64,000 nt of DNA from an uncultured delta proteobacterium (GTDB taxonomy: Bacteria > Myxococcota_A > Polyangia > Palsa-1104). The position numbers and the translations under genes were made by a program. Positions 4,253-46,145 of this stretch are shown one piece after another. The notes beneath the pieces are model-generated. The model was not told where the DNA came from. It was given only the letters and a program-made list of their open reading frames with translations, and did no database searches. Each line of letters starts with the position of its first letter. The first letter of the stretch is position 1. The stretch lies in assembly GCA_963785725.1 (NCBI GenBank), contig CAWAWS010000033.1, positions 256,001 to 320,000 of the forward strand, in the 5' to 3' direction.

Positions 4253-4412
4253 GTTGTCAGGCAGGGAACCTGGTGAAAATCCAGGATTGCCCCGCAGCGG
4301 TGAGCAGGAACGACCGCCGTCACACGCACTGGCTTCGGCTGGGAAGCGACGGCTAGTAGAAGGCGAATCGCCGCGATTCGTCATGCCTGCGAGTCCGAAA
4401 ACCTCCTGACGA
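4253..4412 (+). ncRNA. Cobalamin riboswitch
   Basis: AGGGAA-CCTGGTGAAAATCCAGG-ATTGCCCCGCAGCGGTGA ... GCACTG ... GGGAAG ... B12-box-like GAGTCCGAAAACCT. Closing helix GTCAGG (4256-4261)/CCTGAC (4405-4410). Upstream of a B12-independent RNR. Confidence 0.9.
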
Positions 4413-32475: not shown

Positions 32476-33718
32476 CTACTCCTCGACGTGCTGGAAATAG
32501 TGATGATGCTGCAGCACGCGCTCGAACCGGATCGTCGCCGACGCCGAGATGACCTGTCCGAACGACTGATAGGTCGCGATGAAGTCGGGATCGGTCGACG
32601 TCTTCTTCAGCAGGAACGACGCCAGGTAGCCGAGGTCGAGGCTGAGCCAGTCGAACTTGAGGCCGACGCCCGCCGAGACGACGACGCGGTTGGAGTCGGG
32701 CGCCAGCGGGCCGAGCGTCGCCGTCGGCGCCGGCGACTCGTCGTAACCGGCGCCGAGCCGGATGCGCAGCCGATCTTTCAGGAAGCCGTACTGCGCGCCG
32801 CTGCGAAATGACCAGGCCGTGTGATAGTCGAGCGGCACCGTCTGCGACGTGCTCGTGTTCGTCGCCGGCTCGGTCAGCGTCAGCGTCAGCCCCGACAGAT
32901 CGCGCCACAACGAGACGTTGACCTGCGCCGAGAGGATGAGCTGCCCGAGGAACGCGGCGGCGCCGACCTGGAAGTTGTGCGGGAACGGCAGGCTGACGGT
33001 GGCGCGCTGCACGCCCGGCGACAGCGCCTGCAGCTCGGGCGGCGTCGTGATCGCGCCGCGGCCGCTGAAGTCCATGTCGATGCGGCTGCGATAGGCGAAG
33101 CCGAGGTTGAGGTAGTGCGGGATGAGCTTGACCAGGACGCCGACGTTGCCGCCGAGGCCGGTCGCGGTGGCGCCGGCGTGCAGGTTGCCTTCGGCGGAGC
33201 CGAGCTGCACGGCGCGATAGGTGTCGAACGAGCCGAGCATGATGTCGAAGCCGACGCCGACGCTGAGCCAGGAGAACGGGCGGATCGCCAGCGTCGGCTG
33301 CAGCGTGAACGTGGTGATGTCGATGAAGTAGCCTTCGAAGCGGCCGCGCCAGCCTTCGGGATACGAGAAGTGCTCGCCGAAGTTGGCGAACCCACCGAAG
33401 CCGAGCGCGATGTACTTGCCGAAGCGCTGGCTCACGTAGATCGTCGGTGCGACGGCGGGATGCCACAGCGTCAGATTGTCGGGCGTGACCTCGGTGCGCG
33501 CGATGATGAGGTTGCCACCGATGAGCGCGCCGAAGCCGGGCTGAAAGCCCAAGCCGGCCGGGTTGTAGTCAGATCGCCGCCGGATCGTTGGCGACGGCGG
33601 CGTGCGCGCCGGCCATGCCGACGCCGGCGGCCGACTGCTCGTCGAGCTCGAAGCCGCCGCCGGCGTGCGCCGCGCGGGCCCATGCGGAAACGACCAACAG
33701 GCAAATGACTTTGCGCAT
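32476..33718 (-). CDS. FadL/OMPP1 long-chain fatty-acid outer-membrane transporter; one frameshift
   Basis: MRKVICLL...GGFELDEQSA..VGMAGA..AVANDPAAI, then ATC-TgAC-TAC-AAC (one extra base near 33570) resuming YYNPAGL. C-terminal GAGYDESP...PDSNR. Confidence 0.85.
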
Positions 33719-33732
33719 CGACAGCTCCCGCG

Positions 33733-36522
33733 TCATGGCGTGGCCACCGGCAGCGTCGCGCCGCCCGACAAGACATACGTGGTCGCTTGCGTGCGCATCG
33801 ACGGGCTCGGCATCTCGGTGAGCAGCGTCGTGTGCACGGCGTCGGCGAAGAAGGTGGAGACGAAGGTGCCGGCGGCGTTCGCGCCTTGCGCGTTGCCGTT
33901 GGCGTCGACGCCGCTGCCGCCCCAGAGCGACAGCGACAGCGCCGCCTCGTATTGCGGCGGCACCGTGGTGTCCATCCCCGCCTCTTGCACGATGGCCAGC
34001 TTCGGCGTGTTGGTCGCGCCGAGCACGTAGGAGAACGACGGCGCGCGCCGAATCAGCCGCCCGACCGAGAACGGATCGGTCGGATCGAGCACCCAGCGCG
34101 CCGTCTGCACCAGCTGCGCGTAGGCGGCCGTCCCGCGCATGATGCCGAGCTGCTGCAAGAGCTGGTCGATGGCGGGATGAAAGTCACCGTCGGAGAGGAT
34201 CTCGAATAGGTGGCCGCCGCCGACGCTGAGCACGTTGGCGCCGTTGATCGACGGGTCGGTGGCGAGGAAGACGGCGCCGTTGATGGCGCCGAGCGAGTGG
34301 CCGATGAAGCTCAAGTGCGCCGCGTCGATGGTGCCGCCGAGGCTGGCCGTCGTCAGGCGCGCTTGCAAGCTGTTGCCGCCCGTCGCCTTGACGACGCGCA
34401 CGAGCTGGGCCGCGTCGACGACGTATTGGAAGCCGCCGGCCCGCCCGCCGAACAAGTTGGCGGGATCGACGTAGCCGTTGCCCGACGCGGCCGGCTCGCA
34501 GTCGTCGGCCAGGTCGCCCGAGAACGCGGCCAGATCGCAGGCGAGCGGGTTGGTCGTGTTGACGGCGAGGCCGGTCGAGCAGACGCCGGTCGTCGTGTCG
34601 CAGCTCCCGGCCGTGGCGCCGGTACATTGGTCGTCGGCGCTACATTTGGTGCGCGCGCCGTGGAAGTCGATGTCGAAGCCGATGGCGGCGCTGCCGCTCG
34701 CCGCCAGATCGTTGGCGAGGACGAAGACGTCGCCGCGCCACGAGGTCAGGCCGTGCTGCGCGATGACCACGGGCGCGCCGCTCGCGCTCGCCGTCTTGGG
34801 CAGCGTCAGCCAGTAGTGCACCGTCGCCGGCAGCGTCGCCGCCGGCGTGACGGTGAAGCTGTCGGCGGCGGGCACGGTCGGCGTCGTCGCCGACGGCTGA
34901 CGCGTGAAATGCACCAGCCGCGTCGTCGGATCATAGATGAGCTGCGTCGTGAAGGTGCCGAGCACGACCGCTCTGACGTTCCCGAGCAGCGCCTGCAGCG
35001 TCACCGGCAGCGCCGAGAAGTCGGTGTACGCCGTCGCCGTCACGTCGGTCGAGAGCGCCGCCGTCGTGGGAAAGGCGTCGAGCGCCGCCAGCGGGCGCGC
35101 GACCGATTGCGTGGTGAAGGTCCACAGGGCGGCGATCGCGCTCGCCGGCAGTCCCTTCGTCTGCAGCTCGCCGAGCAGCGGCGCCAGCGCCAAGCGCAGC
35201 GTCTCGAGCTGCTGGGCCGAGGCGTCGTCGAGCACGCTCACCGTCGAGTGCGTGCCGTCGAAGAGCGGGTTGGGCTGCAGGAGCAGCGCCGTCGCCGGTG
35301 AAGGCACGAAGGGCACGCCGCTCGCGGTGGCGCTGCGCGTGACCACCGCGGCGTAGCGCGACTGATCGGACATCAGCGGCAGCGTCGGAACCAGCGCCAC
35401 CTGGCCGAAGCTGGGCGCCGCGACGAACACCGGCGTCTCGGCGTCGCCGCTCTGGTCGAGCGAGACGAGGAGCGTCGACAGGCCGGGCACGAGCGACGCG
35501 GCGTCGATGGTCGCGCCCGCCACGACGTCGACGGGCAGCGTGATCGCCGCCGACTCGGAGAAGCCATCGAGCGTGTTGAGCTCCATCTTCAGCGCCGCTT
35601 CGGGATCGCCGGCGGCAATCGGCAGCATCACGTTGCCGGTCGATTGGTCGATGAGGACGTCGTTGGGGAACGGGATCGCGTTCGACGTCGGATCGAACTC
35701 GGCCACCGGCTGCGCGGTGATGGTGAAGGTCCAGAAGAGCACGACGTCGTCGCGGTTGCGGCCGGGCGCCACCACCGGCAAGAGCTGCGTCAGCGCCGCG
35801 TCGAGCATCTCGCGCTGCGGCTCGGCCTGGCGCGCCTGCGCGTCCGAGACCCCCGAGAACGACGAGTGGCAGGTGGTATCGCTGGGGTCGGCGATGGCCG
35901 CGGCCGGACAGGCGCAGGCGGGATTGGTCGCATCGGCGCAGCGCACGAGCAGCGGCGTCGGCGAGAGCAAGATGAAGAACGTCGACGACGCCAGCACCAC
36001 CGCGCCGTTGGCGCCCTTGAGGCCGAGCGGGTCGCCGTTGCCGAACAGGAGCGCGGCGTAGCGATGGCCGCTGGTGAAGCGGCTGCCGTCGACAATGTTG
36101 AGCGTCTTGCCGTCGGTCGACAGGGACGCGGTCAGCCCGGTCGCCAACGTCGAGGTGGTCGTGTCGACGAAGATGATCGAGCCCGGCGCCGTCGCCGTCT
36201 GCACGGTCAGCGAGGTCGGATCGAGCGGCGCCGAGAAGGTGGTGCTCGCCGTCGAGCTGGGCGGGAAGCCGGTGAGCGTGCGCAGGTAGGCGTTGAGCGC
36301 CAGCTGCGCCGCCGACTGACCGGGCTCGTCGGGCACGTTGAGGTGCACGCCGTCGCCGCCGACGAACGCGAGGTCGTTCGGCGTCGGCAACACCGGCGGC
36401 GACGCCAGTGGGTCGTAGAGCGCGACCGAGATGTTGGACGTCCCAGGCGGCGCGGCGATCTTTGGCTGACAGCCGCCCCAGACGACTCCGAGCAAGCCGA
36501 GCGAGAGTGAAGCGACACGCAT
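33733..36522 (-). CDS. Lipoprotein lipase, Pla-1/Cef/VolA-like, with two Ig-like modules
   Basis: WGGC lipobox; repeated PTPNDL/PFPNDV...LNTLDGFS modules; QHGLT, DFHGAR, GHSLG nucleophile, DTTVP, terminal His. Confidence 0.8.
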   Translation of the reverse strand: MRVASLSLGLLGVVWGGCQPKIAAPPGTSNISVALYDPLASPPVLPTPNDLAFVGGDGVHLNVPDEPGQSAAQLALNAYLRTLTGFPPSSTASTTFSAPLDPTSLTVQTATAPGSIIFVDTTTSTLATGLTASLSTDGKTLNIVDGSRFTSGHRYAALLFGNGDPLGLKGANGAVVLASSTFFILLSPTPLLVRCADATNPACACPAAAIADPSDTTCHSSFSGVSDAQARQAEPQREMLDAALTQLLPVVAPGRNRDDVVLFWTFTITAQPVAEFDPTSNAIPFPNDVLIDQSTGNVMLPIAAGDPEAALKMELNTLDGFSESAAITLPVDVVAGATIDAASLVPGLSTLLVSLDQSGDAETPVFVAAPSFGQVALVPTLPLMSDQSRYAAVVTRSATASGVPFVPSPATALLLQPNPLFDGTHSTVSVLDDASAQQLETLRLALAPLLGELQTKGLPASAIAALWTFTTQSVARPLAALDAFPTTAALSTDVTATAYTDFSALPVTLQALLGNVRAVVLGTFTTQLIYDPTTRLVHFTRQPSATTPTVPAADSFTVTPAATLPATVHYWLTLPKTASASGAPVVIAQHGLTSWRGDVFVLANDLAASGSAAIGFDIDFHGARTKCSADDQCTGATAGSCDTTTGVCSTGLAVNTTNPLACDLAAFSGDLADDCEPAASGNGYVDPANLFGGRAGGFQYVVDAAQLVRVVKATGGNSLQARLTTASLGGTIDAAHLSFIGHSLGAINGAVFLATDPSINGANVLSVGGGHLFEILSDGDFHPAIDQLLQQLGIMRGTAAYAQLVQTARWVLDPTDPFSVGRLIRRAPSFSYVLGATNTPKLAIVQEAGMDTTVPPQYEAALSLSLWGGSGVDANGNAQGANAAGTFVSTFFADAVHTTLLTEMPSPSMRTQATTYVLSGGATLPVATP

Positions 36523-36649
36523 GGCGATTGTTTCAGCGCCGATTCGTGTACGTCAATCGCGTGACCGATTCGAAACACCAAAGTAAGGGACTTACCCTGC
36601 GGGATTCGCGGTAGCCGAGTCGTGGGTGAAGTCGTGCCGAACCGAGCGG

Positions 36650-37363
36650 TTAGACTTCGACTTTCAGCGTCGGCTTCGTGTTGGGGTAGATCTGCTCGAC
36701 GGCCGGTTCGTCGGGACCGGGCTTTTGCATGGCGAACGCATTGACCGGCTGCGATCGATTGATCCAGAGCGCGTAGTACAGATGATCGGACCGCGGGTCA
36801 TCGGTATTCGGATGCAGCAATATCGTCAACCCGAGACTATTGAGCTGCAGCCACGGCACCAGCACCGGCAGCAAATCGTTGGTGAAGCCGAAATAGAATG
36901 ACGGCGTCACGTGCGGACCGCGCGGCTGCAGATTCCAATTGCCGAGCTCGACCAGGAAGCGCTCCGCGACCCACTTACGAATCAGCGCCGCCTTTTCGTA
37001 GCTGTCTTCGTCGAAGTAGACGTGCGCGTGATAGCTCTCGATGTCGGTGTATTTGCGCGGCCGCGCCGGCAGCTGCTGCTCGCCCGGCCTGACGCTCGGC
37101 GGACGCGGCGTCGGCTCCTTGTACGTCTCGTAGCCCCACGGGCTGCGGCCGGGCGCGTGCGGCGGCGCCACGCGCGTCGCGGCCGCCGCGTTCGATCGAC
37201 CGCTCGGCGCTTCGCCGGCGACGGCGGCCCGCGCAGTCGCCGCGCGCGCCAGCGTCAACGCCGCCAAGCCCGCCGTCACCACCTGCCGGCGACTCGGTCC
37301 CAGCCGATCGGCCCAGGCTTGGTCATCGCCGCTCGGCTCGTCCTCTTGCGATCGTTCACTCAT
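36650..37363 (-). CDS. DOPA 4,5-dioxygenase-family protein with Tat-like signal
   Basis: SRRQVVTAGLAAL...ATARA; YHAHVYF, GPH, WLQLN..GL.ILLHPNT...DH...ALW. Confidence 0.8.
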   Translation of the reverse strand: MSERSQEDEPSGDDQAWADRLGPSRRQVVTAGLAALTLARAATARAAVAGEAPSGRSNAAAATRVAPPHAPGRSPWGYETYKEPTPRPPSVRPGEQQLPARPRKYTDIESYHAHVYFDEDSYEKAALIRKWVAERFLVELGNWNLQPRGPHVTPSFYFGFTNDLLPVLVPWLQLNSLGLTILLHPNTDDPRSDHLYYALWINRSQPVNAFAMQKPGPDEPAVEQIYPNTKPTLKVEV

Positions 37364-37383
37364 CGGCGTTATCGCTGGCGGCG

Positions 37384-37965
37384 CTAGCTGGCGCGGCCGA
37401 CGGCGGTGGCGCGCTCGACCTCGATGAGCCGGCCGCTCTCGACCTGGTAGACGTAGCCGTAGATGGGGATGGCGCGCGGCACCAGCGGATGATTGCGGAT
37501 GCGCTCGACGTCGGTGGTGACGCTCTCGGCCTGCTCGCGGATGGTGAGCCAGTCGATGTAGTCGCCTTGGCGCGAGCCGGGACCGGCGCCGACGTCGCGC
37601 CACTGCTTGCCGTCGTGCTGCGCCGTGTGCAGGCTGGACGCGAGCAGGCCGCGGATGATCTCGTCGCTGAACAGCTCCATGCCGCAGCTCGAGTGATGAA
37701 TGACGAACCACTCCTTCGTGCCCAAGAGCTTGTGCGAGATGACGAGCGAGCGGATGGCGTCGTCGCTGGCGCGGCCGCCGGCGTTGCGGATGACGTGCGC
37801 GTCGCCCTCGGCGAGGCCGGCGTATTTGGCCGGATCGAGGCGCGCGTCCATGCAGGTCAAGATGGCGAAGCCGCGCGCCGGCGGCAGCGCCAGCTTGCCC
37901 TTGTCGCCGAACTCGGACGCGTAGCGCGCGTTGGCCTTCAAGACGTCTTCGCGAATCTGGCTCAT
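37384..37965 (-). CDS. Beta-class carbonic anhydrase (clade D-like)
   Basis: [34 protein letters not shown]. Confidence 0.92.
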
Positions 37966-38001
37966 CGATTCCTCCTCGAGCGTGGACGGTTGGCGATCAG
38001 T

Positions 38002-38074
38002 TGGCGGCCCCTTCCGGGATTCGAACCCGGCTCGACGGTTTTGCAGACCACGCCATCCCAGATGGCAAGGAGCC
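38002..38074 (-). tRNA. Atypical tRNA with Cys anticodon (GCA), encoded CCA and G discriminator
   Basis: GGCTCCTT-GCCATCTGGGATGGC-GTGGT-CTGCAAA-ACCGT-CGAG-CCGGG-TTCGAAT-CCCGG-AAGGGGCC-G-CCA. T arm and anticodon loop are canonical. Confidence 0.8.
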
Positions 38075-38086
38075 AGAGTGTCTTCG

Positions 38087-38182
38087 TTACGACTGCGACT
38101 CGTGACGCTGCGCGATCGCCAGCAGCACGAGGTGGAACAACACGATGCCGAAGCCGAGCGTGTAGTCGACGACGCGGCTCAT
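38087..38182 (-). CDS. 31-aa single-TM microprotein
   Basis: [31 protein letters not shown]. The ATG overlaps the upstream stop (ATGA). Confidence 0.55.
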
Positions 38183-38505
38183 CGGGCGGCGCCCGCCGCC
38201 GCTATCGGCGCGACGTCCATGCCCGCGAGGATCGCCGCCAGTCGCGCCGGGCTGCAGCGTCGATAGAGCACGACCGGCACGCCGTGAGCGCGCGCCGCTC
38301 GCCGCGCGACGTGCACGGCGCCGTGGCTGTTGACGTCGGTGACGACGATGAGAAAGTCGACGCCGCGCGCCAGCAGATCGAGCGTGTTGCTGCCGCGTCC
38401 GCCGATGTGGCCCGAGTGAAAGGCGATCGAGTGCCCGCTACGCTCGGCGATCTCGCGATAGAGCGACTCGGTCCGTTCGACGCCGCCGACAATACCGATT
38501 CGCAT
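38179..38505 (-). CDS. DUF2325-like protein
   Basis: MRIGIVGG...FHSG...D..IVVTDVNSH.AV..AR..AR..GVP. Confidence 0.75.
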   Translation of the reverse strand: MRIGIVGGVERTESLYREIAERSGHSIAFHSGHIGGRGSNTLDLLARGVDFLIVVTDVNSHGAVHVARRAARAHGVPVVLYRRCSPARLAAILAGMDVAPIAAAGAAR

Positions 38506-38508
38506 AGA

Positions 38509-38895
38509 TCACCAGTGCCAAACCTGCTCGTAGCCTTCGAGCAGCTCGGCGAACGCGTGCGCGGCGATCGGCGTCGGTCCGTCGATGATCTCGTCGCGGG
38601 CGATGCCGCGCCGTTTCGCGTCATCCTCGACGTAGAACACGCGCACGCCTTTGTCGCCGAGCCGGCGCACGTCGTCGGCGAGCCGCGGCGGCTGCGTTTG
38701 CCGGCGTTCCCCGAAGGCGAGCCCGCTCGCGTCCTGATCGCGCACGACGTAATTGACCGCGTTGCCGCGCAGGAGCACGTCGGTGTCGGCGCCATTGCCG
38801 CGCAGCGACGTCACCAGCCACAAGACCGGATCGTCCTGCTCCTCGAGCGTCGCGCGATAAGCGGTCTCGACGATCTGCAAAATCTTCTTCGACAT
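38509..38895 (-). CDS. DsrE/F-like family protein (DsrF/TusC-like, no Cys)
   Basis: ILQIVETAYRATLEEQDD...VLLRGNAV...VFYVEDD..RRGI. Confidence 0.7.
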   Translation of the reverse strand: MSKKILQIVETAYRATLEEQDDPVLWLVTSLRGNGADTDVLLRGNAVNYVVRDQDASGLAFGERRQTQPPRLADDVRRLGDKGVRVFYVEDDAKRRGIARDEIIDGPTPIAAHAFAELLEGYEQVWHW

Positions 38896-38904
38896 GACGG
38901 CTCC

Positions 38905-39318
38905 TTACTTCGTGGGAATGACGAGCGTGTTGACCGAAGCCGCGACGAACTTGGCGAGGTCGGCGGGGCTGCCGCGGCGCGTGCCGGCGACCGCTTCGGC
39001 GACGCCGCGCTCGTCGACGCACAGGCCGCAGTTGACCCAATCGACTGTGACGGCGCGCGTCTCGGCCTCGGCGAGGATGGCGGCGATCCAATCCTTCGTC
39101 GTCGGATGATCTTCGAGGGCGGCGTCGCGGCCGTGCACGGCGTTGGCGTGCGGCGTCTGCTTGACGAACGGCAGCGCCACGGCGCCTTCGTAAGCGAAGA
39201 CGTTGACGTCGAAGCCGCGCTTGACGGCACGATCGATGAGGCGCAGCGCCGTCGTCGTGCGCGCGTTCTCGTAAGGCGGATCATTGAGCACGAACGTCAG
39301 CGATTGCTTGGTCGACAT
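38905..39318 (-). CDS. DsrE/TusD-like sulfur-relay protein
   Basis: PPYENARTTTALRL...VFAYEGAV...NCGLCVDERG; the Cys sits at the DsrE active-site position. Confidence 0.8.
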   Translation of the reverse strand: MSTKQSLTFVLNDPPYENARTTTALRLIDRAVKRGFDVNVFAYEGAVALPFVKQTPHANAVHGRDAALEDHPTTKDWIAAILAEAETRAVTVDWVNCGLCVDERGVAEAVAGTRRGSPADLAKFVAASVNTLVIPTK

Positions 39319-39327
39319 CTTGTCCTC

Positions 39328-39654
39328 CTAATGCCAGAGCGTCGTGTGGCCGGCGGCGAGCCGATCGATGACCGCGTCGAGGTCCGCCGGCGTGATGGCG
39401 GACGCCAGCCGTCCGGCGTGGATGCCGCGCTCGCGCAGCGAGAAGTCGTCGGCGAGGATCGCGACGCCGCTCGCGCGCAGCTCGTCGAGCACGCTCGATT
39501 CGGCCTGTGCGCGCGCCGGCAGCACGCCGTTCTGCACGAGGAAGAACGTCACCTCGTGCCGCTTGCGCGCCAGCGTCGCCGCCAGCCGATAGAAGTAATT
39601 GTCGTCGCCGGACTCGAAGGGATCGCGCGATTCGATCAGCAAATACTTGGCCAT
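39328..39654 (-). CDS. DsrH/TusB-like protein
   Basis: FFLVQNGV...LADDFSLRERGI...TLW; AGGAGGAG RBS. Confidence 0.7.
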   Translation of the reverse strand: MAKYLLIESRDPFESGDDNYFYRLAATLARKRHEVTFFLVQNGVLPARAQAESSVLDELRASGVAILADDFSLRERGIHAGRLASAITPADLDAVIDRLAAGHTTLWH

Positions 39655-39673
39655 CAGCTCCTCCTACGAAACG

Positions 39674-39707
39674 AAAAAAGCCCGCCGGCGGGTGCGCGCG
39701 GCGGGCT
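39674..39707 (-). terminator. Intrinsic terminator (attenuator 1) upstream of the dsr-like genes
   Basis: AGCCCGCC-loop-GGCGGGCT followed by a T run, about 20 nt before the start codon. Confidence 0.85.
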
Positions 39708-39726
39708 CGGATGCAGCAAATCGCAA

Positions 39727-39804
39727 CTAAGGAACGGCGATCGGCGGCCCGGTGCCCGCACGTGCGCGACAACATCCCGCGCTGTCCATCGCCATCCGTT
39801 TCAT
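39727..39804 (-). CDS. Cys-Cys leader peptide 1 (25 aa)
   Basis: MKRMAMDSAGCCRARAGTGPPIAVP with TGT-TGT at codons 11-12. The ATG lies 6 nt after the -10. Confidence 0.7.
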   Translation of the reverse strand: MKRMAMDSAGCCRARAGTGPPIAVP

Positions 39805-39810
39805 AAGACG

Positions 39811-39839
39811 ACTATCCGTTATAACGGACGCGCTGTCAA
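39811..39839 (-). promoter_or_regulatory. sigma70 promoter with palindromic operator in the spacer
   Basis: TTGACA, 17 nt, GATAGT; perfect palindrome TCCGTTATAACGGA at 39815-39828. Confidence 0.7.
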
Positions 39840-40288
39840 GGGCGTAAATAGCGCCACTTCTTCTCCGGCTTGCCGTGCTTGCCGCGGCGATCGGTCGTCC
39901 AGCCGCTGCAGGCGGACATGTGCTTGAAGACATCGGCGGGATCGGCCAAACGATCGGGCACGATGGGCTCGCTGCACAGCCAGCAGATCGTGACCTCGGC
40001 CGCCTCTTCGGCGACGCGCCTGGGGCCTTTGACGGCGACGCGCAGCACGAGCTTGGCGCGCCGCAAGTGCTCGAGCGCGATCCTCGCCGCGCCGGATTCG
40101 AGCGTGCCCAGCCGAATCTCCTCGGCGACGCGGCGCTCGGTGTCGCGCAACGCGTCCAGCGAGGTCGGCACCTCGGCGCCTTGGCGCGCGACGCCCGCGT
40201 CCTCCGCGACCCGCTCGGCGAGCGGCGCCGATCGTTCCGCCGCGAGCAGTTGCGGCACTCCCAAGCGGCGTTGCTGAAGCATGCCCAT
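39836..40288 (-). CDS. Hypothetical protein with CxxC...HxxxC zinc-finger-like motif
   Basis: AGGAGA RBS; CWLC...HMSAC near the C-terminus. Confidence 0.6.
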   Translation of the reverse strand: MGMLQQRRLGVPQLLAAERSAPLAERVAEDAGVARQGAEVPTSLDALRDTERRVAEEIRLGTLESGAARIALEHLRRAKLVLRVAVKGPRRVAEEAAEVTICWLCSEPIVPDRLADPADVFKHMSACSGWTTDRRGKHGKPEKKWRYLRP

Positions 40289-40321
40289 GACCGTTCTCCT
40301 GACAAAGTCGCAAACGTGCGT

Positions 40322-40363
40322 AAAAGCAAAAAGCCCACCGACCCTCGCGGGCTGGTGGGCTTT
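40322..40363 (-). terminator. Intrinsic terminator (attenuator 2)
   Basis: AAAGCCCACC-loop-GGTGGGCTTT followed by TTGCTTTT. Confidence 0.85.
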
Positions 40364-40381
40364 GGACCGCGTTCAGCGTCC

Positions 40382-40456
40382 TTAACAGCGCGCTGACGGA
40401 CCGTCGCCCATGCATCGCCGACAACACGTCGCGCGGTCGATGATCGGGCAACCCAT
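40382..40456 (-). CDS. Cys-rich leader peptide 2 (24 aa, 5 Cys)
   Basis: MGCPIIDRATCCRRCMGDGPSARC with TGT-TGT at codons 11-12. Confidence 0.75.
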   Translation of the reverse strand: MGCPIIDRATCCRRCMGDGPSARC

Positions 40457-40462
40457 CCTTCG

Positions 40463-40492
40463 CTTTTATCCGTTATTGCGGATGAATGTCAA
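40463..40492 (-). promoter_or_regulatory. sigma70 promoter with second operator copy
   Basis: TTGACA (40487-40492) and AT-rich -10 (GATAAAAG); ATCCGTTATTGCGGAT at 40468-40483. Confidence 0.65.
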
Positions 40493-40640
40493 ATCCGTGC
40501 ACTTTCCCGGCCGATTTGCGGGAATTGCGCGAGCGTCATCGTCCGCTATTACGGATGCCGATACGAAGCGTTAGCTGCAAGCGAGGGAATGGTCGAGCAG
40601 GGACGGCTGGGACAATCGGCGCGCAGTGGCGCGCGCGGCG

Positions 40641-44409: not shown

Positions 44410-44472
44410 CCGACCCATGTTCGACCGCGCGAGAGACGGAATCTCTCGATGACCCGCAACCTGGAGGAACAG

Positions 44473-44658
44473 ATGAAAGACGTGAAGGACGAACTGAAGA
44501 AGCTGAGCAACGAGGCGCTGGCGAGCGTTCGCGGCGGTACCGTCACGCTGCGTCCGCCGTCGCTCGGCGGAGTCGGCGGCGGCAGCGCGCTTCTTTGCGG
44601 CGGCGATGCCATGGCCGAGAGCTGCGTTGCCATCATCCACATCCCCGCCAAGCAGTAA
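44473..44658 (+). CDS. Putative RiPP precursor with double-glycine leader
   Basis: GGAGGA RBS; MKDVKDELKKLSNEALASVRGG|TVTLRPPSLGGVGGGSALLCGGDAMAESCVAIIHIPAKQ. Ends 11 nt before the radical SAM gene. Confidence 0.8.
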   Translation: MKDVKDELKKLSNEALASVRGGTVTLRPPSLGGVGGGSALLCGGDAMAESCVAIIHIPAKQ

Positions 44659-44669
44659 GGAGTAGCCAC

Positions 44670-46145
44670 ATGTCCTCGAAGATCGCTGGCGCCTATCAGA
44701 CGTCTCGTTACAACTTCTTCGTACCGACGATCGAGGCGACGCTGCTTTACAACTCGCTCCACGGAAGCGTCGTCGGTCTGGGCTCGGCGCAAGCGGCCAA
44801 GCTTGCTTCGGCGCTGGCCAAGCCGGGCGTCGCGGTCTTCGAGGATGATCTACCACCCGAGCTGTTCTTGCAGCTCAGCGAAGGGCACTTCGTCGTCCCG
44901 CCGGGAACGGACGAGCTGGCGCTCATCAAAGAGCGCTTTCGCAAGGCGCGCAATGACGCGCCGGCGATTCTGACGATTACGACGACCATGGATTGCAACC
45001 TCGGCTGCTACTACTGTTATGAAGAGCGCTCCGGCGATCAGCTGACCCAGCAAGGCGATCTGGAAGCGCTCGTGGCCGAGGCGCGGCGCCTCGTGACGCG
45101 GCAAAACAAGACGACGCTGCATGTCGATTGGTATGGCGGCGAGCCGCTCCTGAACGTCGAGTTTCTCGAGGTGGCGTCGGCGCGTCTGTGTGCGCTCGCC
45201 GATGAGCTCGGCGTGCATTACGAGGCGTCGATCCTGACCAACGGCACCTGTTGGCCGGAGGATGTGGGCGCCTTCGTGGCGCGACATCGCATCGTCCGCG
45301 TGCAGATTCCGTTCGATGGGCTCAAGGAGAATCACGACAAACGAAGGCATTATCGCAAGGGTTATGCGCCTTCGGAGGACGCGTCGAGCTTCGAGCTGGC
45401 CGCCGCGCTCGTCGGAAAGCTGCTCGACCACACGCGCGTCGACATCCGCTGCAATATCGATCGTTCCAACGGCTCGGACTTTGTCGGGCTGATTCGCTTT
45501 GCACGCGAGCAGGGCTGGTTCGACAAGCGCTTCGCCGCGGTCATTCAACCGGCGCGCTTGACGAAATACTCCGAGCACACGTCGTTCATGCACAAGGCCG
45601 AGCTCGTTCGCAGCGACTTCGACACCGTTCGAGAGGAGATCGAGCGCGCGGTTCCCACGCATGTCGAAGTGCAAAACTCGAAAGTAGCGGCGTTTCCCGA
45701 GCCGCGCTTCTCGGTCTGCGCGGCGCTCAATGAAGATGCCGTCGTCGTCGGCGCCAATGGCTCGCTCTATCGCTGTGGCTTGCAGGTGGGCGAAAAGCAC
45801 CGCGTCGTCGGCGAGCTTCATGGCGCCGCGGCCAAACCGGACAACAAGCGCCATTTACCGCTTCTCGGCGCCGCCGGTAATGACGTCGAATTCTGGCGCA
45901 CATTCGATCCGACGGAGCGCCCGCGCTGCTCGGCCTGCACGTTCTTGCCGATCTGTTGGTCGGGTTGCCCCAAGGTGCATCTCGAAGGCGACGCACTGGC
46001 GATCGCACGGCAAGGCGAATACTGGCGCACCAACCTTCCGCGGCAGGTCGCCAACGGGCTCGGGCTTACGCTCGACGGAGAGTACGCGTTTTCGGCGCAA
46101 GACCAGTTCCCGGATGGCGAGCCCGAGACCCTCTCGCACTCGTAA
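44670..46145 (+). CDS. Radical SAM/SPASM peptide maturase
   Basis: AAGGAG RBS; about 90-aa RRE-like N-terminus, CNLGCYYC, WYGGEPLL, TNG; SPASM C-x18-C and CxxC-x5-C-x3-C. Confidence 0.9.
   Translation: MSSKIAGAYQTSRYNFFVPTIEATLLYNSLHGSVVGLGSAQAAKLASALAKPGVAVFEDDLPPELFLQLSEGHFVVPPGTDELALIKERFRKARNDAPAILTITTTMDCNLGCYYCYEERSGDQLTQQGDLEALVAEARRLVTRQNKTTLHVDWYGGEPLLNVEFLEVASARLCALADELGVHYEASILTNGTCWPEDVGAFVARHRIVRVQIPFDGLKENHDKRRHYRKGYAPSEDASSFELAAALVGKLLDHTRVDIRCNIDRSNGSDFVGLIRFAREQGWFDKRFAAVIQPARLTKYSEHTSFMHKAELVRSDFDTVREEIERAVPTHVEVQNSKVAAFPEPRFSVCAALNEDAVVVGANGSLYRCGLQVGEKHRVVGELHGAAAKPDNKRHLPLLGAAGNDVEFWRTFDPTERPRCSACTFLPICWSGCPKVHLEGDALAIARQGEYWRTNLPRQVANGLGLTLDGEYAFSAQDQFPDGEPETLSHS

Follow-up and report, generated by a model that had tools for sequence, protein, structure and literature searches.

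An atypical tRNA(GCA) in a gene cluster assigned to a candidate sulfur-starvation regulon of Polyangia-type myxobacteria

What is a tRNA with a cysteine anticodon doing in a tightly packed bacterial gene cluster, and do the genes around it form one dedicated system? The cluster in question occupies positions 36650..40556 of the window, that is, the whole 64,000-nucleotide stretch of DNA analysed (G000:C33:256001-320000), from the genome of an uncultured Polyangia-type myxobacterium (hereafter the source genome, G000; 8.9 Mb, 68% GC, 88% complete), whose homologs bear names such as Polyangia, Polyangiaceae and Myxococcales. A first-pass annotation of the window had described a cysteine-attenuated operon, in which promoters with operators, cysteine-rich leaders and terminators precede a trio of Dsr-like genes, a DUF2325 gene, an atypical tRNA(GCA) and a beta-class carbonic anhydrase (beta-CA), and had taken it for a new sulfur-scavenging system that supplies its own cysteine tRNA. 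Scans, Pfam and ARAGORN searches and shuffles recovered every listed part, all on the minus strand. The results partly support that annotation: the sulfur reading and the odd tRNA hold up, and a fixed system does not. We lean, by a little, towards regarding the cluster as a genome-specific mosaic of modules, each drawn from one Polyangia-type sulfur-starvation regulon, with the tRNA in a ribosome-rescue role. The tRNA is the novel part of the locus, by its combination of a GCA anticodon, G73 and an 8-bp acceptor stem.

Operator, leaders and sulfur control

The operator palindrome TCCGYWWWWRCGGA occurs in 16 exact copies in the source genome, against 0.16 expected under a Markov model; the motif was taken from the window itself, which holds 3 of the 16. 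The promoter element TTGAC stands directly 5' of the operator in 7/14 genomes of the family and 4/4 of the genus but in 0/27 other genomes of the order, and a reversed-motif control gave no match to TTGAC plus operator. Ten operator loci in relatives head cysD-cysN (2), genes for ssuA-type sulfonate binding proteins (4; three score above the TIGR01728 cut-off, and the fourth, incomplete, was assigned by eye), XRE-cupin genes (2) and DUF2325 genes (2). The source genome also has the operator 5' of a YeeE-type sulfur transporter pair, of a porin gene adjoining an XRE-cupin gene and of a second DUF2325 copy, and at 14/20 other DUF2325 loci among those listed the gene is preceded by a looser form. 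Since the same promoter-operator is found 5' of cysDN, ssuA, XRE-cupin and DUF2325 genes in relatives, the cluster very probably belongs to a sulfur regulon, and the sulfur-linked control claimed for it is thereby borne out. Two observations weigh against this assignment: the source genome's own cysD and ssuA are without the operator, and several of its operator copies lie inside genes or 5' of genes without a link to sulfur.

The sites 5' of XRE-cupin genes suggest that the regulator is itself an XRE-cupin protein, for example that at G000:C2:55046-55651 or one of the L128 type, and the candidates combine HTH_3 and Cupin_2 domains. A cupin architecture is also found in SutR (YdcN) of Escherichia coli. 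The cited passages place SutR in the XRE family and connect it, as a regulator, with the use of sulfur (PMC4797297); the likeness lies in an XRE-family regulator acting with sulfur genes, represented here by an operator shared between sulfur and XRE-cupin genes. The two are likened by family only, and the sites 5' of the regulator genes suggest binding to the palindrome. In the first layer of the proposed control, an XRE-cupin repressor would occupy TCCG-N6-CGGA between the -35 and -10 elements and release it when sulfur is short. A literature search, from which subscription journals and supplements mostly fell outside, found no description of the operator or regulon. For Polyangia-type myxobacteria, the analysis defines a sulfur-starvation operator together with a candidate for its regulator, and places DUF2325 within the proposed regulon.

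Elsewhere in the source genome, operator-like copies occur in tandem arrays or within coding sequence (G000:C15:64800-65030, C15:375215-375901, C39:316204-316303). A second operator-led unit (G000:C17:2300-6471) comprises the end of a cupin gene, a shortened paralog of the third trio gene (34% identity), DUF2325 and a porin, and may be a decayed copy of the window cassette.

In classical trp and his attenuators, ribosome stalling on a leader open reading frame (ORF) sets an RNA switch. Both leaders of the cluster have the parts of a leader attenuator, namely tandem regulatory codons within a short ORF and, beyond it, an intrinsic terminator. Each uses TGT-TGT at codons 11-12, TGT accounting for 12% of the Cys codons in the called genes of the source genome. 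Leader 2 is leaderless, with its ATG 6 nt past the -10 box, and leader 1 is probably so or nearly so. Both terminator hairpins fold better than 200/200 shuffles (z -5.2 and -4.0), although terminator 1 alone was picked up by the simple terminator scan, and promoter 2 alone by the promoter scan. A genome of the same genus (G003) has a third cassette, 5' of DUF2325, which keeps the promoter, TGT-TGT-CG, the stop position and the terminator.

As a second layer of control, a shortage of Cys-tRNA would stall the ribosome at the TGT pair, leader nucleotides ~43-51 would then pair with the 5' arm of the terminator and transcription would read through, whereas a ribosome at the stop codon would cover this segment and let the terminator form. 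We modelled the nascent RNA as ending at the terminator loop, with the bases beneath the ribosome blocked. When the stall is placed at the Cys pair, this leader segment (nt ~43-51) pairs with the terminator arm in 3/3 leaders, in the same register and with matching changes, and the pairing probability is 0.68-0.83 as against 0.00-0.07 with the ribosome at the stop. Two results tell against this switch. For each leader taken alone, 62-72 of 200 shuffles reach the same antiterminator pairing, so the control is not significant, and at equilibrium the terminator always forms in full-length leader RNA. The switch would have to be kinetic. On balance, the modelled antiterminator and the third cassette argue that Cys-codon attenuation is likely to operate at both leaders, and it stands as the working model that the first-pass annotation had offered. 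Mycobacterial cysteine-responsive sORFs, which are leaderless, polycysteine and act on the ribosome-binding site according to the cited passages, resemble these leaders as short, often leaderless Cys-codon ORFs 5' of sulfur genes (10.1101/834739). Unlike them, the leaders described here stand under a repressor operator, have just one pair of adjacent rare TGT codons and are followed by an intrinsic terminator. In another genome (G006, L121:1555-1590), an operator-led leader of 10 codons with four Cys codons in a row lies 5' of DUF2325, without a U-tract terminator. In Vitiosangium sp. GDMCC 1.1324 (L007:5440-5650), a TTGACG promoter-like site and a TGT-TGT leader are found ~100 nt 5' of the DsrE-fold trio.

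An atypical tRNA under the operator

The tRNA has a GCA anticodon, G73 and an encoded CCA, and the cysteine determinant U73 is absent. In its fold, the acceptor stem has 8 bp and is followed by a single linker base; the D stem, which is invariant, has 5 bp and a UGG loop of 3 nt; the anticodon stem is bulged, the variable loop measures 3-4 nt, and the 5-bp T stem carries a canonical T loop. U8 is paired. Because the window tRNA alone folds no better than chance (21/200 shuffles as good), its reality rests on its homologs. These bring the family to 11 distinct sequences, the copy in G424 being the same as that in L118, and GCA and G73 are each present in 11/11. Ten aligned copies are paired in 220/220 cells, with double changes at four pairs, which 0/500 shuffles match; this covariation test has no control for relatedness. 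Acceptor pairs 1-8 form in 10/10 copies, with one double change at pair 7, and the acceptor stem of every copy contains a single U.G, located at pair 3, 4, 5 or 6. Pairs 3-7 vary freely, and G1-C72, G2-C71, G73 and the D arm are invariant.

Five of the copies are relatives found among 25 matches to a metagenome pattern scan that demanded G73-CCA; the other 20 were rejected as tRNA-Ser variable arms or other tRNAs. The unbiased set comes from a pattern of D arm and anticodon that demanded neither G73 nor the stem; it matched in 4/400 class genomes, and 4/4 of these copies have G73 and an 8-bp stem. Model R2 placed the tRNA in 6/138 genomes of a further family (f17), where 22 of the 28 matches were weak (<=51 bits vs >=99) and, among the matches listed, were taken for ordinary or array tRNAs. 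The family was not found in viral contigs (3 matches, unrelated), plasmids, 41 order genomes, 150 class genomes (model R1) or 400 phylum genomes. Two points reduce the weight of this conservation: the five metagenome copies are no test of G73, the pattern having demanded it, and one copy (G413) has U33C.

The setting of the tRNA was scored with an operator matrix trained on loci without it. Scores of at least 16.7 occur within 700 nt of the tRNA in 7/11 copies and within 3 kb in 9/11, and even scores of at least 14 are reached in only 7/1500 random windows. The promoter-operator lies 37 nt 5' of the tRNA in G391; at locus L101 the operator site that follows TTGAC is weak, and the 1436 nt available for G323 contain no site. 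Neighbouring genes include those for TauD-family proteins, SsuE, sulfite dehydrogenase, rhodanese, GST and XRE-cupin proteins. The 11 copies, the operator proximity and the covariation together indicate that the atypical tRNA, as first annotated, is real, and that it is in all appearance a distinct, conserved gene of the control circuit of the sulfur regulon.

No description of the tRNA was found in the literature, subscription journals and supplements, where tRNA surveys could list it, being outside the scope of the search. Annotation software labels it as plain tRNA-Cys, which hides the family in existing genomes. A tRNA with a short variable arm and a 13-bp acceptor branch lies outside the structural classes named in the cited passages of the papers compared below, and could serve as a new orthogonal scaffold. 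By eye, a short hydrophobic ORF of ~20-30 codons seems to sit 3' of the tRNA in loci L101, L118, L171 and L172, and 5' of a TauD-family gene in three of them.

Origin, charging and possible role of the tRNA

Myxococcus phage Mx1 (OR576727.2, L196:1496-1572) carries an unannotated tRNA-like gene in an array, with GCA and the same short D arm. It is the closest outside relative, with a 7-bp stem and U73, unlike the window tRNA. The source genome itself has an array of ~20 tRNA genes (G000:C3:124966-129345), several with short D arms; it is interrupted by what we take, by eye, to be a Ro60/TROVE-like gene, and then presumably an RtcB-like gene. A TGG D loop and G73 are also features of the array Trp tRNAs, of which five out of six shown have an acceptor U.G as well. 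The atypical tRNA most likely derives from short-D-arm tRNAs of arrays or phages, through a change of U73 to G73 and the gain of one acceptor pair. It resembles the members of long tRNA arrays and of the Anabaena trn operon as an accessory, stress-linked tRNA gene, as those are presented in the cited passages (PMC8421152). It differs from array tRNAs in standing alone behind a sulfur operator, and in combining G73 and an 8-bp stem with an anticodon for Cys.

GCA is the trait that the tRNA shares with canonical tRNACys, and U73, the 7/5 acceptor branch and the full D loop are missing. According to the cited passages, U73 and GCA are the major determinants for CysRS, and G73 is the Trp determinant in bacteria (PMC9976931). 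With G73 in place of U73, the tRNA probably does not donate cysteine in the ordinary way, which weakens the proposal that it supplies cysteine. Its 8-bp acceptor stem, 13-bp branch, G73 and long D stem with a tiny loop recall tRNASec, the only tRNA that the cited passages name as having a 13-bp branch (PMC5389517). GCA and the 8-bp stem recall selC*, which differs in its 8/4 branch and U73 and can come with SelB*/CysRS* (PMC7609411, cited in part). Both selC* and allo-tRNAs carry long variable arms (PMC7609411, PMC5389517, as cited in part), an element that is absent here and without which charging by SerRS is unlikely. The cited passages place none of tRNASec, selC* and allo-tRNAs under the control of a nutrient regulon, unlike the tRNA considered here. 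Nor were the traits of tRNAPyl (a PylRS in the genome, no TPsiC) seen, in a search of five carriers for the synthetase.

Each of the five carriers searched encodes exactly one CysRS and no second one; a PylRS/SepRS-like paralog was not found in them (one strong PF01409 match each, with a weak extra one in G323), and the carriers have no consistent extra gene of the TrpRS/TyrRS family (1-3 matches per genome). Within the coverage of these families, and of PF00587 in the source genome only, no dedicated synthetase was found. An alignment of CysRS (7/10 sequences kept) gave no diagnostic column between four carriers and three non-carriers. In the source genome, a 423-aa protein (G000:C14:195069-196340) has a weak PF00587 match; it presumably resembles amino acid:carrier-protein ligases.

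By identity elements, TrpRS would be the best candidate for the charging enzyme, because of G73, a body like that of the array Trp tRNAs and an anticodon one base from CCA. In the favoured mosaic model, the read-through transcript would yield the DsrE-fold trio with its one CxxC subunit, DUF2325, beta-CA and the tRNA, and a housekeeping synthetase would charge the tRNA with another amino acid, so that it would rescue ribosomes stalled at Cys codons and spare sulfur at a missense cost. Charging with an amino acid other than cysteine, with rescue of Cys-codon stalls, is the single most likely role, which we put forward tentatively. The further step, in which the tRNA would carry that amino acid to UGC/UGU under sulfur starvation as a programmed, reversible and sulfur-sparing recoding, is a more doubtful suggestion. 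Several facts count against charging of this kind: the tRNA has G1-C72 and the array Trp tRNAs have A1-U72, tryptophan at Cys codons would be disruptive, and a G73 tRNACys is charged with cysteine in some methanogens, together with an altered CysRS in the cited passages (PMC8762117). The tRNA may serve as a signal, or may allow Cys codons to be read in starving cells with no use of cysteine. If recoding is true, the tRNA would also shut its own Cys-Cys attenuators in the source genome, closing a feedback loop. The feedback on the attenuator that was first proposed is possible there, but it cannot explain the conservation of the tRNA, because no Cys-Cys leader was seen, by eye, upstream of the tRNA in other carriers. 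The accessory tRNAProA and ProRSx of Streptomyces reportedly bring about deliberate mistranslation, with the dedicated synthetase encoded. The present tRNA is similar in being accessory and in having a body and an anticodon that point to different amino acids; it differs in that no dedicated synthetase was found, and mistranslation is what we infer. It provides a defined object of 73 nt with which to learn whether deliberate recoding of a sense codon, governed by a nutrient, takes place in bacteria.

A tRNA of the same regulon that is never charged, and whose GCA serves as a decoy for CysRS or for A sites at Cys codons, would spare free cysteine, deepen Cys-codon stalls or feed RelA; in the source genome it would reinforce the attenuators instead of damping them. 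Such a decoy agrees with G73 and a 13-bp acceptor branch, which oppose CysRS, and with the retention of GCA, the T loop and CCA. It also agrees with the lack of a second CysRS or PylRS/SepRS-like paralog in the five carriers, with the freedom of pairs 3-7 and with the tolerance of U33C in one copy. However, uncharged canonical tRNACys already builds up in starvation, as is established, so the gain is unclear, and the invariant G1-C72, G2-C71, G73 and D arm suit recognition by a specific protein. We consider the decoy a credible contender, if a doubtful one.

Closest to the first-pass annotation is the view that the tRNA supplements the canonical tRNACys, the one CysRS charging it in spite of G73, and that it is perhaps useful through needing fewer sulfur modifications, U8 being paired. 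The retention of GCA and G1-C72 and a U73 phage tRNA as nearest relative are in its favour, as are the G73 tRNACys of methanogens (PMC8762117) and a CysRS variant that accepts an 8-bp stem (PMC7609411), both as given in the cited passages. Those published cases are accompanied by an altered or extra CysRS, however, and the carriers have one CysRS without a diagnostic column. The source genome also holds two other GCA tRNAs, both with U73, a U73 tRNACys is present in G303 and G323 as well, and an extra tRNA is no relief for a shortage of cysteine. We consider this explanation rather unlikely.

Far less probable is that trio, DUF2325, tRNA and beta-CA co-evolve as a single dedicated system which takes up the entire locus and, for instance, uses persulfide sulfur to build cysteine on the tRNA. 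The parts are tightly packed in the source genome, the 8/5 branch, G73 and extended D stem recall tRNASec, and DUF2325, in two subtypes ~32% identical, lies directly 5' of the tRNA in 7/11 copies. On the other hand, 29/29 other DUF2325 loci are without the tRNA, and there is neither a long variable arm for SerRS nor a SepRS-like paralog. Among 80 trio loci, the neighbourhood search proposed in the first-pass annotation found the GCA tRNA beside the trio in 0, beta-CA in 1 and DUF2325 in 1, and the tRNA loci of other carriers have neither trio nor beta-CA (by tblastn; by gene list for G413). Decay of an array tRNA that had integrated and then hitch-hiked in sulfur loci would account for the patchy spread (0/41 order genomes, 6/138 in another family), the array-like D arm and U33C in one copy, but is the least credible explanation of all given 100% pairing with compensatory changes, flanks that vary between loci behind an operator that stays, and no array tRNAs beside the scanned copies except one ordinary tRNA 1.5-2.4 kb off in two.

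The DsrE-fold trio and the other parts of the cluster

All three trio genes occur in order in 79/80 loci, spread over many phyla, and a search of 14 other family genomes found no trio. In gene 2, Cys97 and Cys100 are present in 78/78 sequences and Cys97 aligns with DsrE Cys78, whereas genes 1 and 3 have no conserved Cys column (73 sequences aligned for gene 1). The nearest solved relatives, all weak, are YchN/MTH1491 for gene 1, a DsrE-like protein for gene 2 and DsrH for gene 3, so the dsrH-, dsrE-, dsrF-like order first assigned is not supported; a single-sequence search of the PDB with gene 2 gave chance matches only. The trio resembles DsrEFH/TusBCD in having three adjacent DsrE-fold genes with Cys in only one. 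It differs in its CxxC with three invariant His, its order and subunit types and its scores (15.8-17.5 bits against TusB/TusD cut-offs of 49.2 and 89.25; TIGR03011/TIGR03012). DsrC/TusE (PF04358) was not found in the 88% complete source genome, which encodes one TusA. The trio, first described as DsrEFH-like, probably works like a DsrE-family sulfur carrier that handles persulfide or thiol, and is filed under neither DsrEFH nor TusBCD. Two counts run contrary to a sulfur role: only ~9/80 trio loci have a clearly sulfur-related immediate neighbour (132/139 flanking genes scanned), and the operator is present at only 3/78. The analysis draws attention to a widespread and highly conserved DsrE-fold trio without known function.

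The three PF02635 genes, DUF2325, PF00484 and PF08883 all score above their Pfam cut-offs, and an Rfam scan of the cluster interval gave no match. The beta-CA falls in the group to which COS and CS2 hydrolases belong, and among its solved relatives it matches COS hydrolase (E 5e-29) and CS2 hydrolase (E 4e-25), with five entries named carbonic anhydrase scoring higher; the enzyme may release sulfide from COS/CS2. The structure model of DUF2325 (pLDDT 89) has no Foldseek match at E<=0.001 and only generic Rossmann-like matches (best Z 9.4, rmsd 2.8 over 95 residues); the guess, from sequence, that it is an L7Ae-like RNA binder was dropped in view of these matches. The 150-aa ORF, first called Zn-finger-like, keeps its CxxC..H..C motif invariant in 7/7 aligned sequences but belongs to no Pfam family, and its Atlas matches are <0.9. 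The spacing of the genes suggests that they are co-transcribed, and the DOPA-dioxygenase-like gene is a cluster member by position only; no operator was seen at two homologs in the class. The parts are collected in Table 1.

Table 1. Features of the cluster, with positions in the window.
Feature	Position	Strand	Support
Auxiliary operator palindrome, TCCG-N6-CGGA type	40541..40556		Genome motif count
Promoter 1: TTGACA, then operator overlapping the likely -10 region	40468..40492	-	Layout shared with 7/14 family genomes
Leader peptide 1 (predicted): 24 codons, 5 Cys, TGT-TGT at codons 11-12	40382..40456	-	
Intrinsic terminator 1; 5' arm able to pair with leader nt 47-51 (modelled antiterminator)	40322..40363	-	
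150-aa protein, C-terminal CxxC..H..C motif	39836..40288	-	No Pfam family; 6 homologs
Promoter 2: TTGACA, operator, -10 GATAGT; overlaps 3' end of 150-aa gene	39814..39839	-	
Leader peptide 2 (predicted): 25 codons, TGT-TGT at codons 11-12	39727..39804	-	
Intrinsic terminator 2; 5' arm able to pair with leader nt 46-51	39674..39708	-	
DsrE-fold gene 1: 108 aa, without Cys	39328..39654	-	PF02635
DsrE-like gene 2: 137 aa; invariant Cys97, Cys100, His57, His62, His71	38905..39318	-	PF02635
DsrE-fold gene 3: 128 aa, without Cys, nearest DsrH	38509..38895	-	PF02635
DUF2325 protein, small Rossmann/flavodoxin-like fold; recurrent regulon member	38179..38505	-	Pfam cut-off passed
Hydrophobic micro-ORF, 31 codons, putative gene	38087..38182	-	No family match
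Atypical tRNA(GCA)	38002..38074	-	ARAGORN call
Beta-class carbonic anhydrase (PF00484)	37384..37965	-	Pfam cut-off passed
DOPA 4,5-dioxygenase-family protein (DOPA_dioxygen, PF08883), RR-containing N-terminus	36650..37363	-	Pfam cut-off passed

Directly downstream of the cluster lie genes for a VolA/Pla-1-like lipoprotein and a FadL-family transporter (window 32476-36522, minus strand), with a promoter-like site of their own at 36556. Further off in the window, a 69-aa ORF with a Gly-Gly motif stands 5' of a radical SAM gene (44449-46145, plus strand), a possible modified-peptide locus, and a cobalamin riboswitch is located at 4263-4404 (plus strand).

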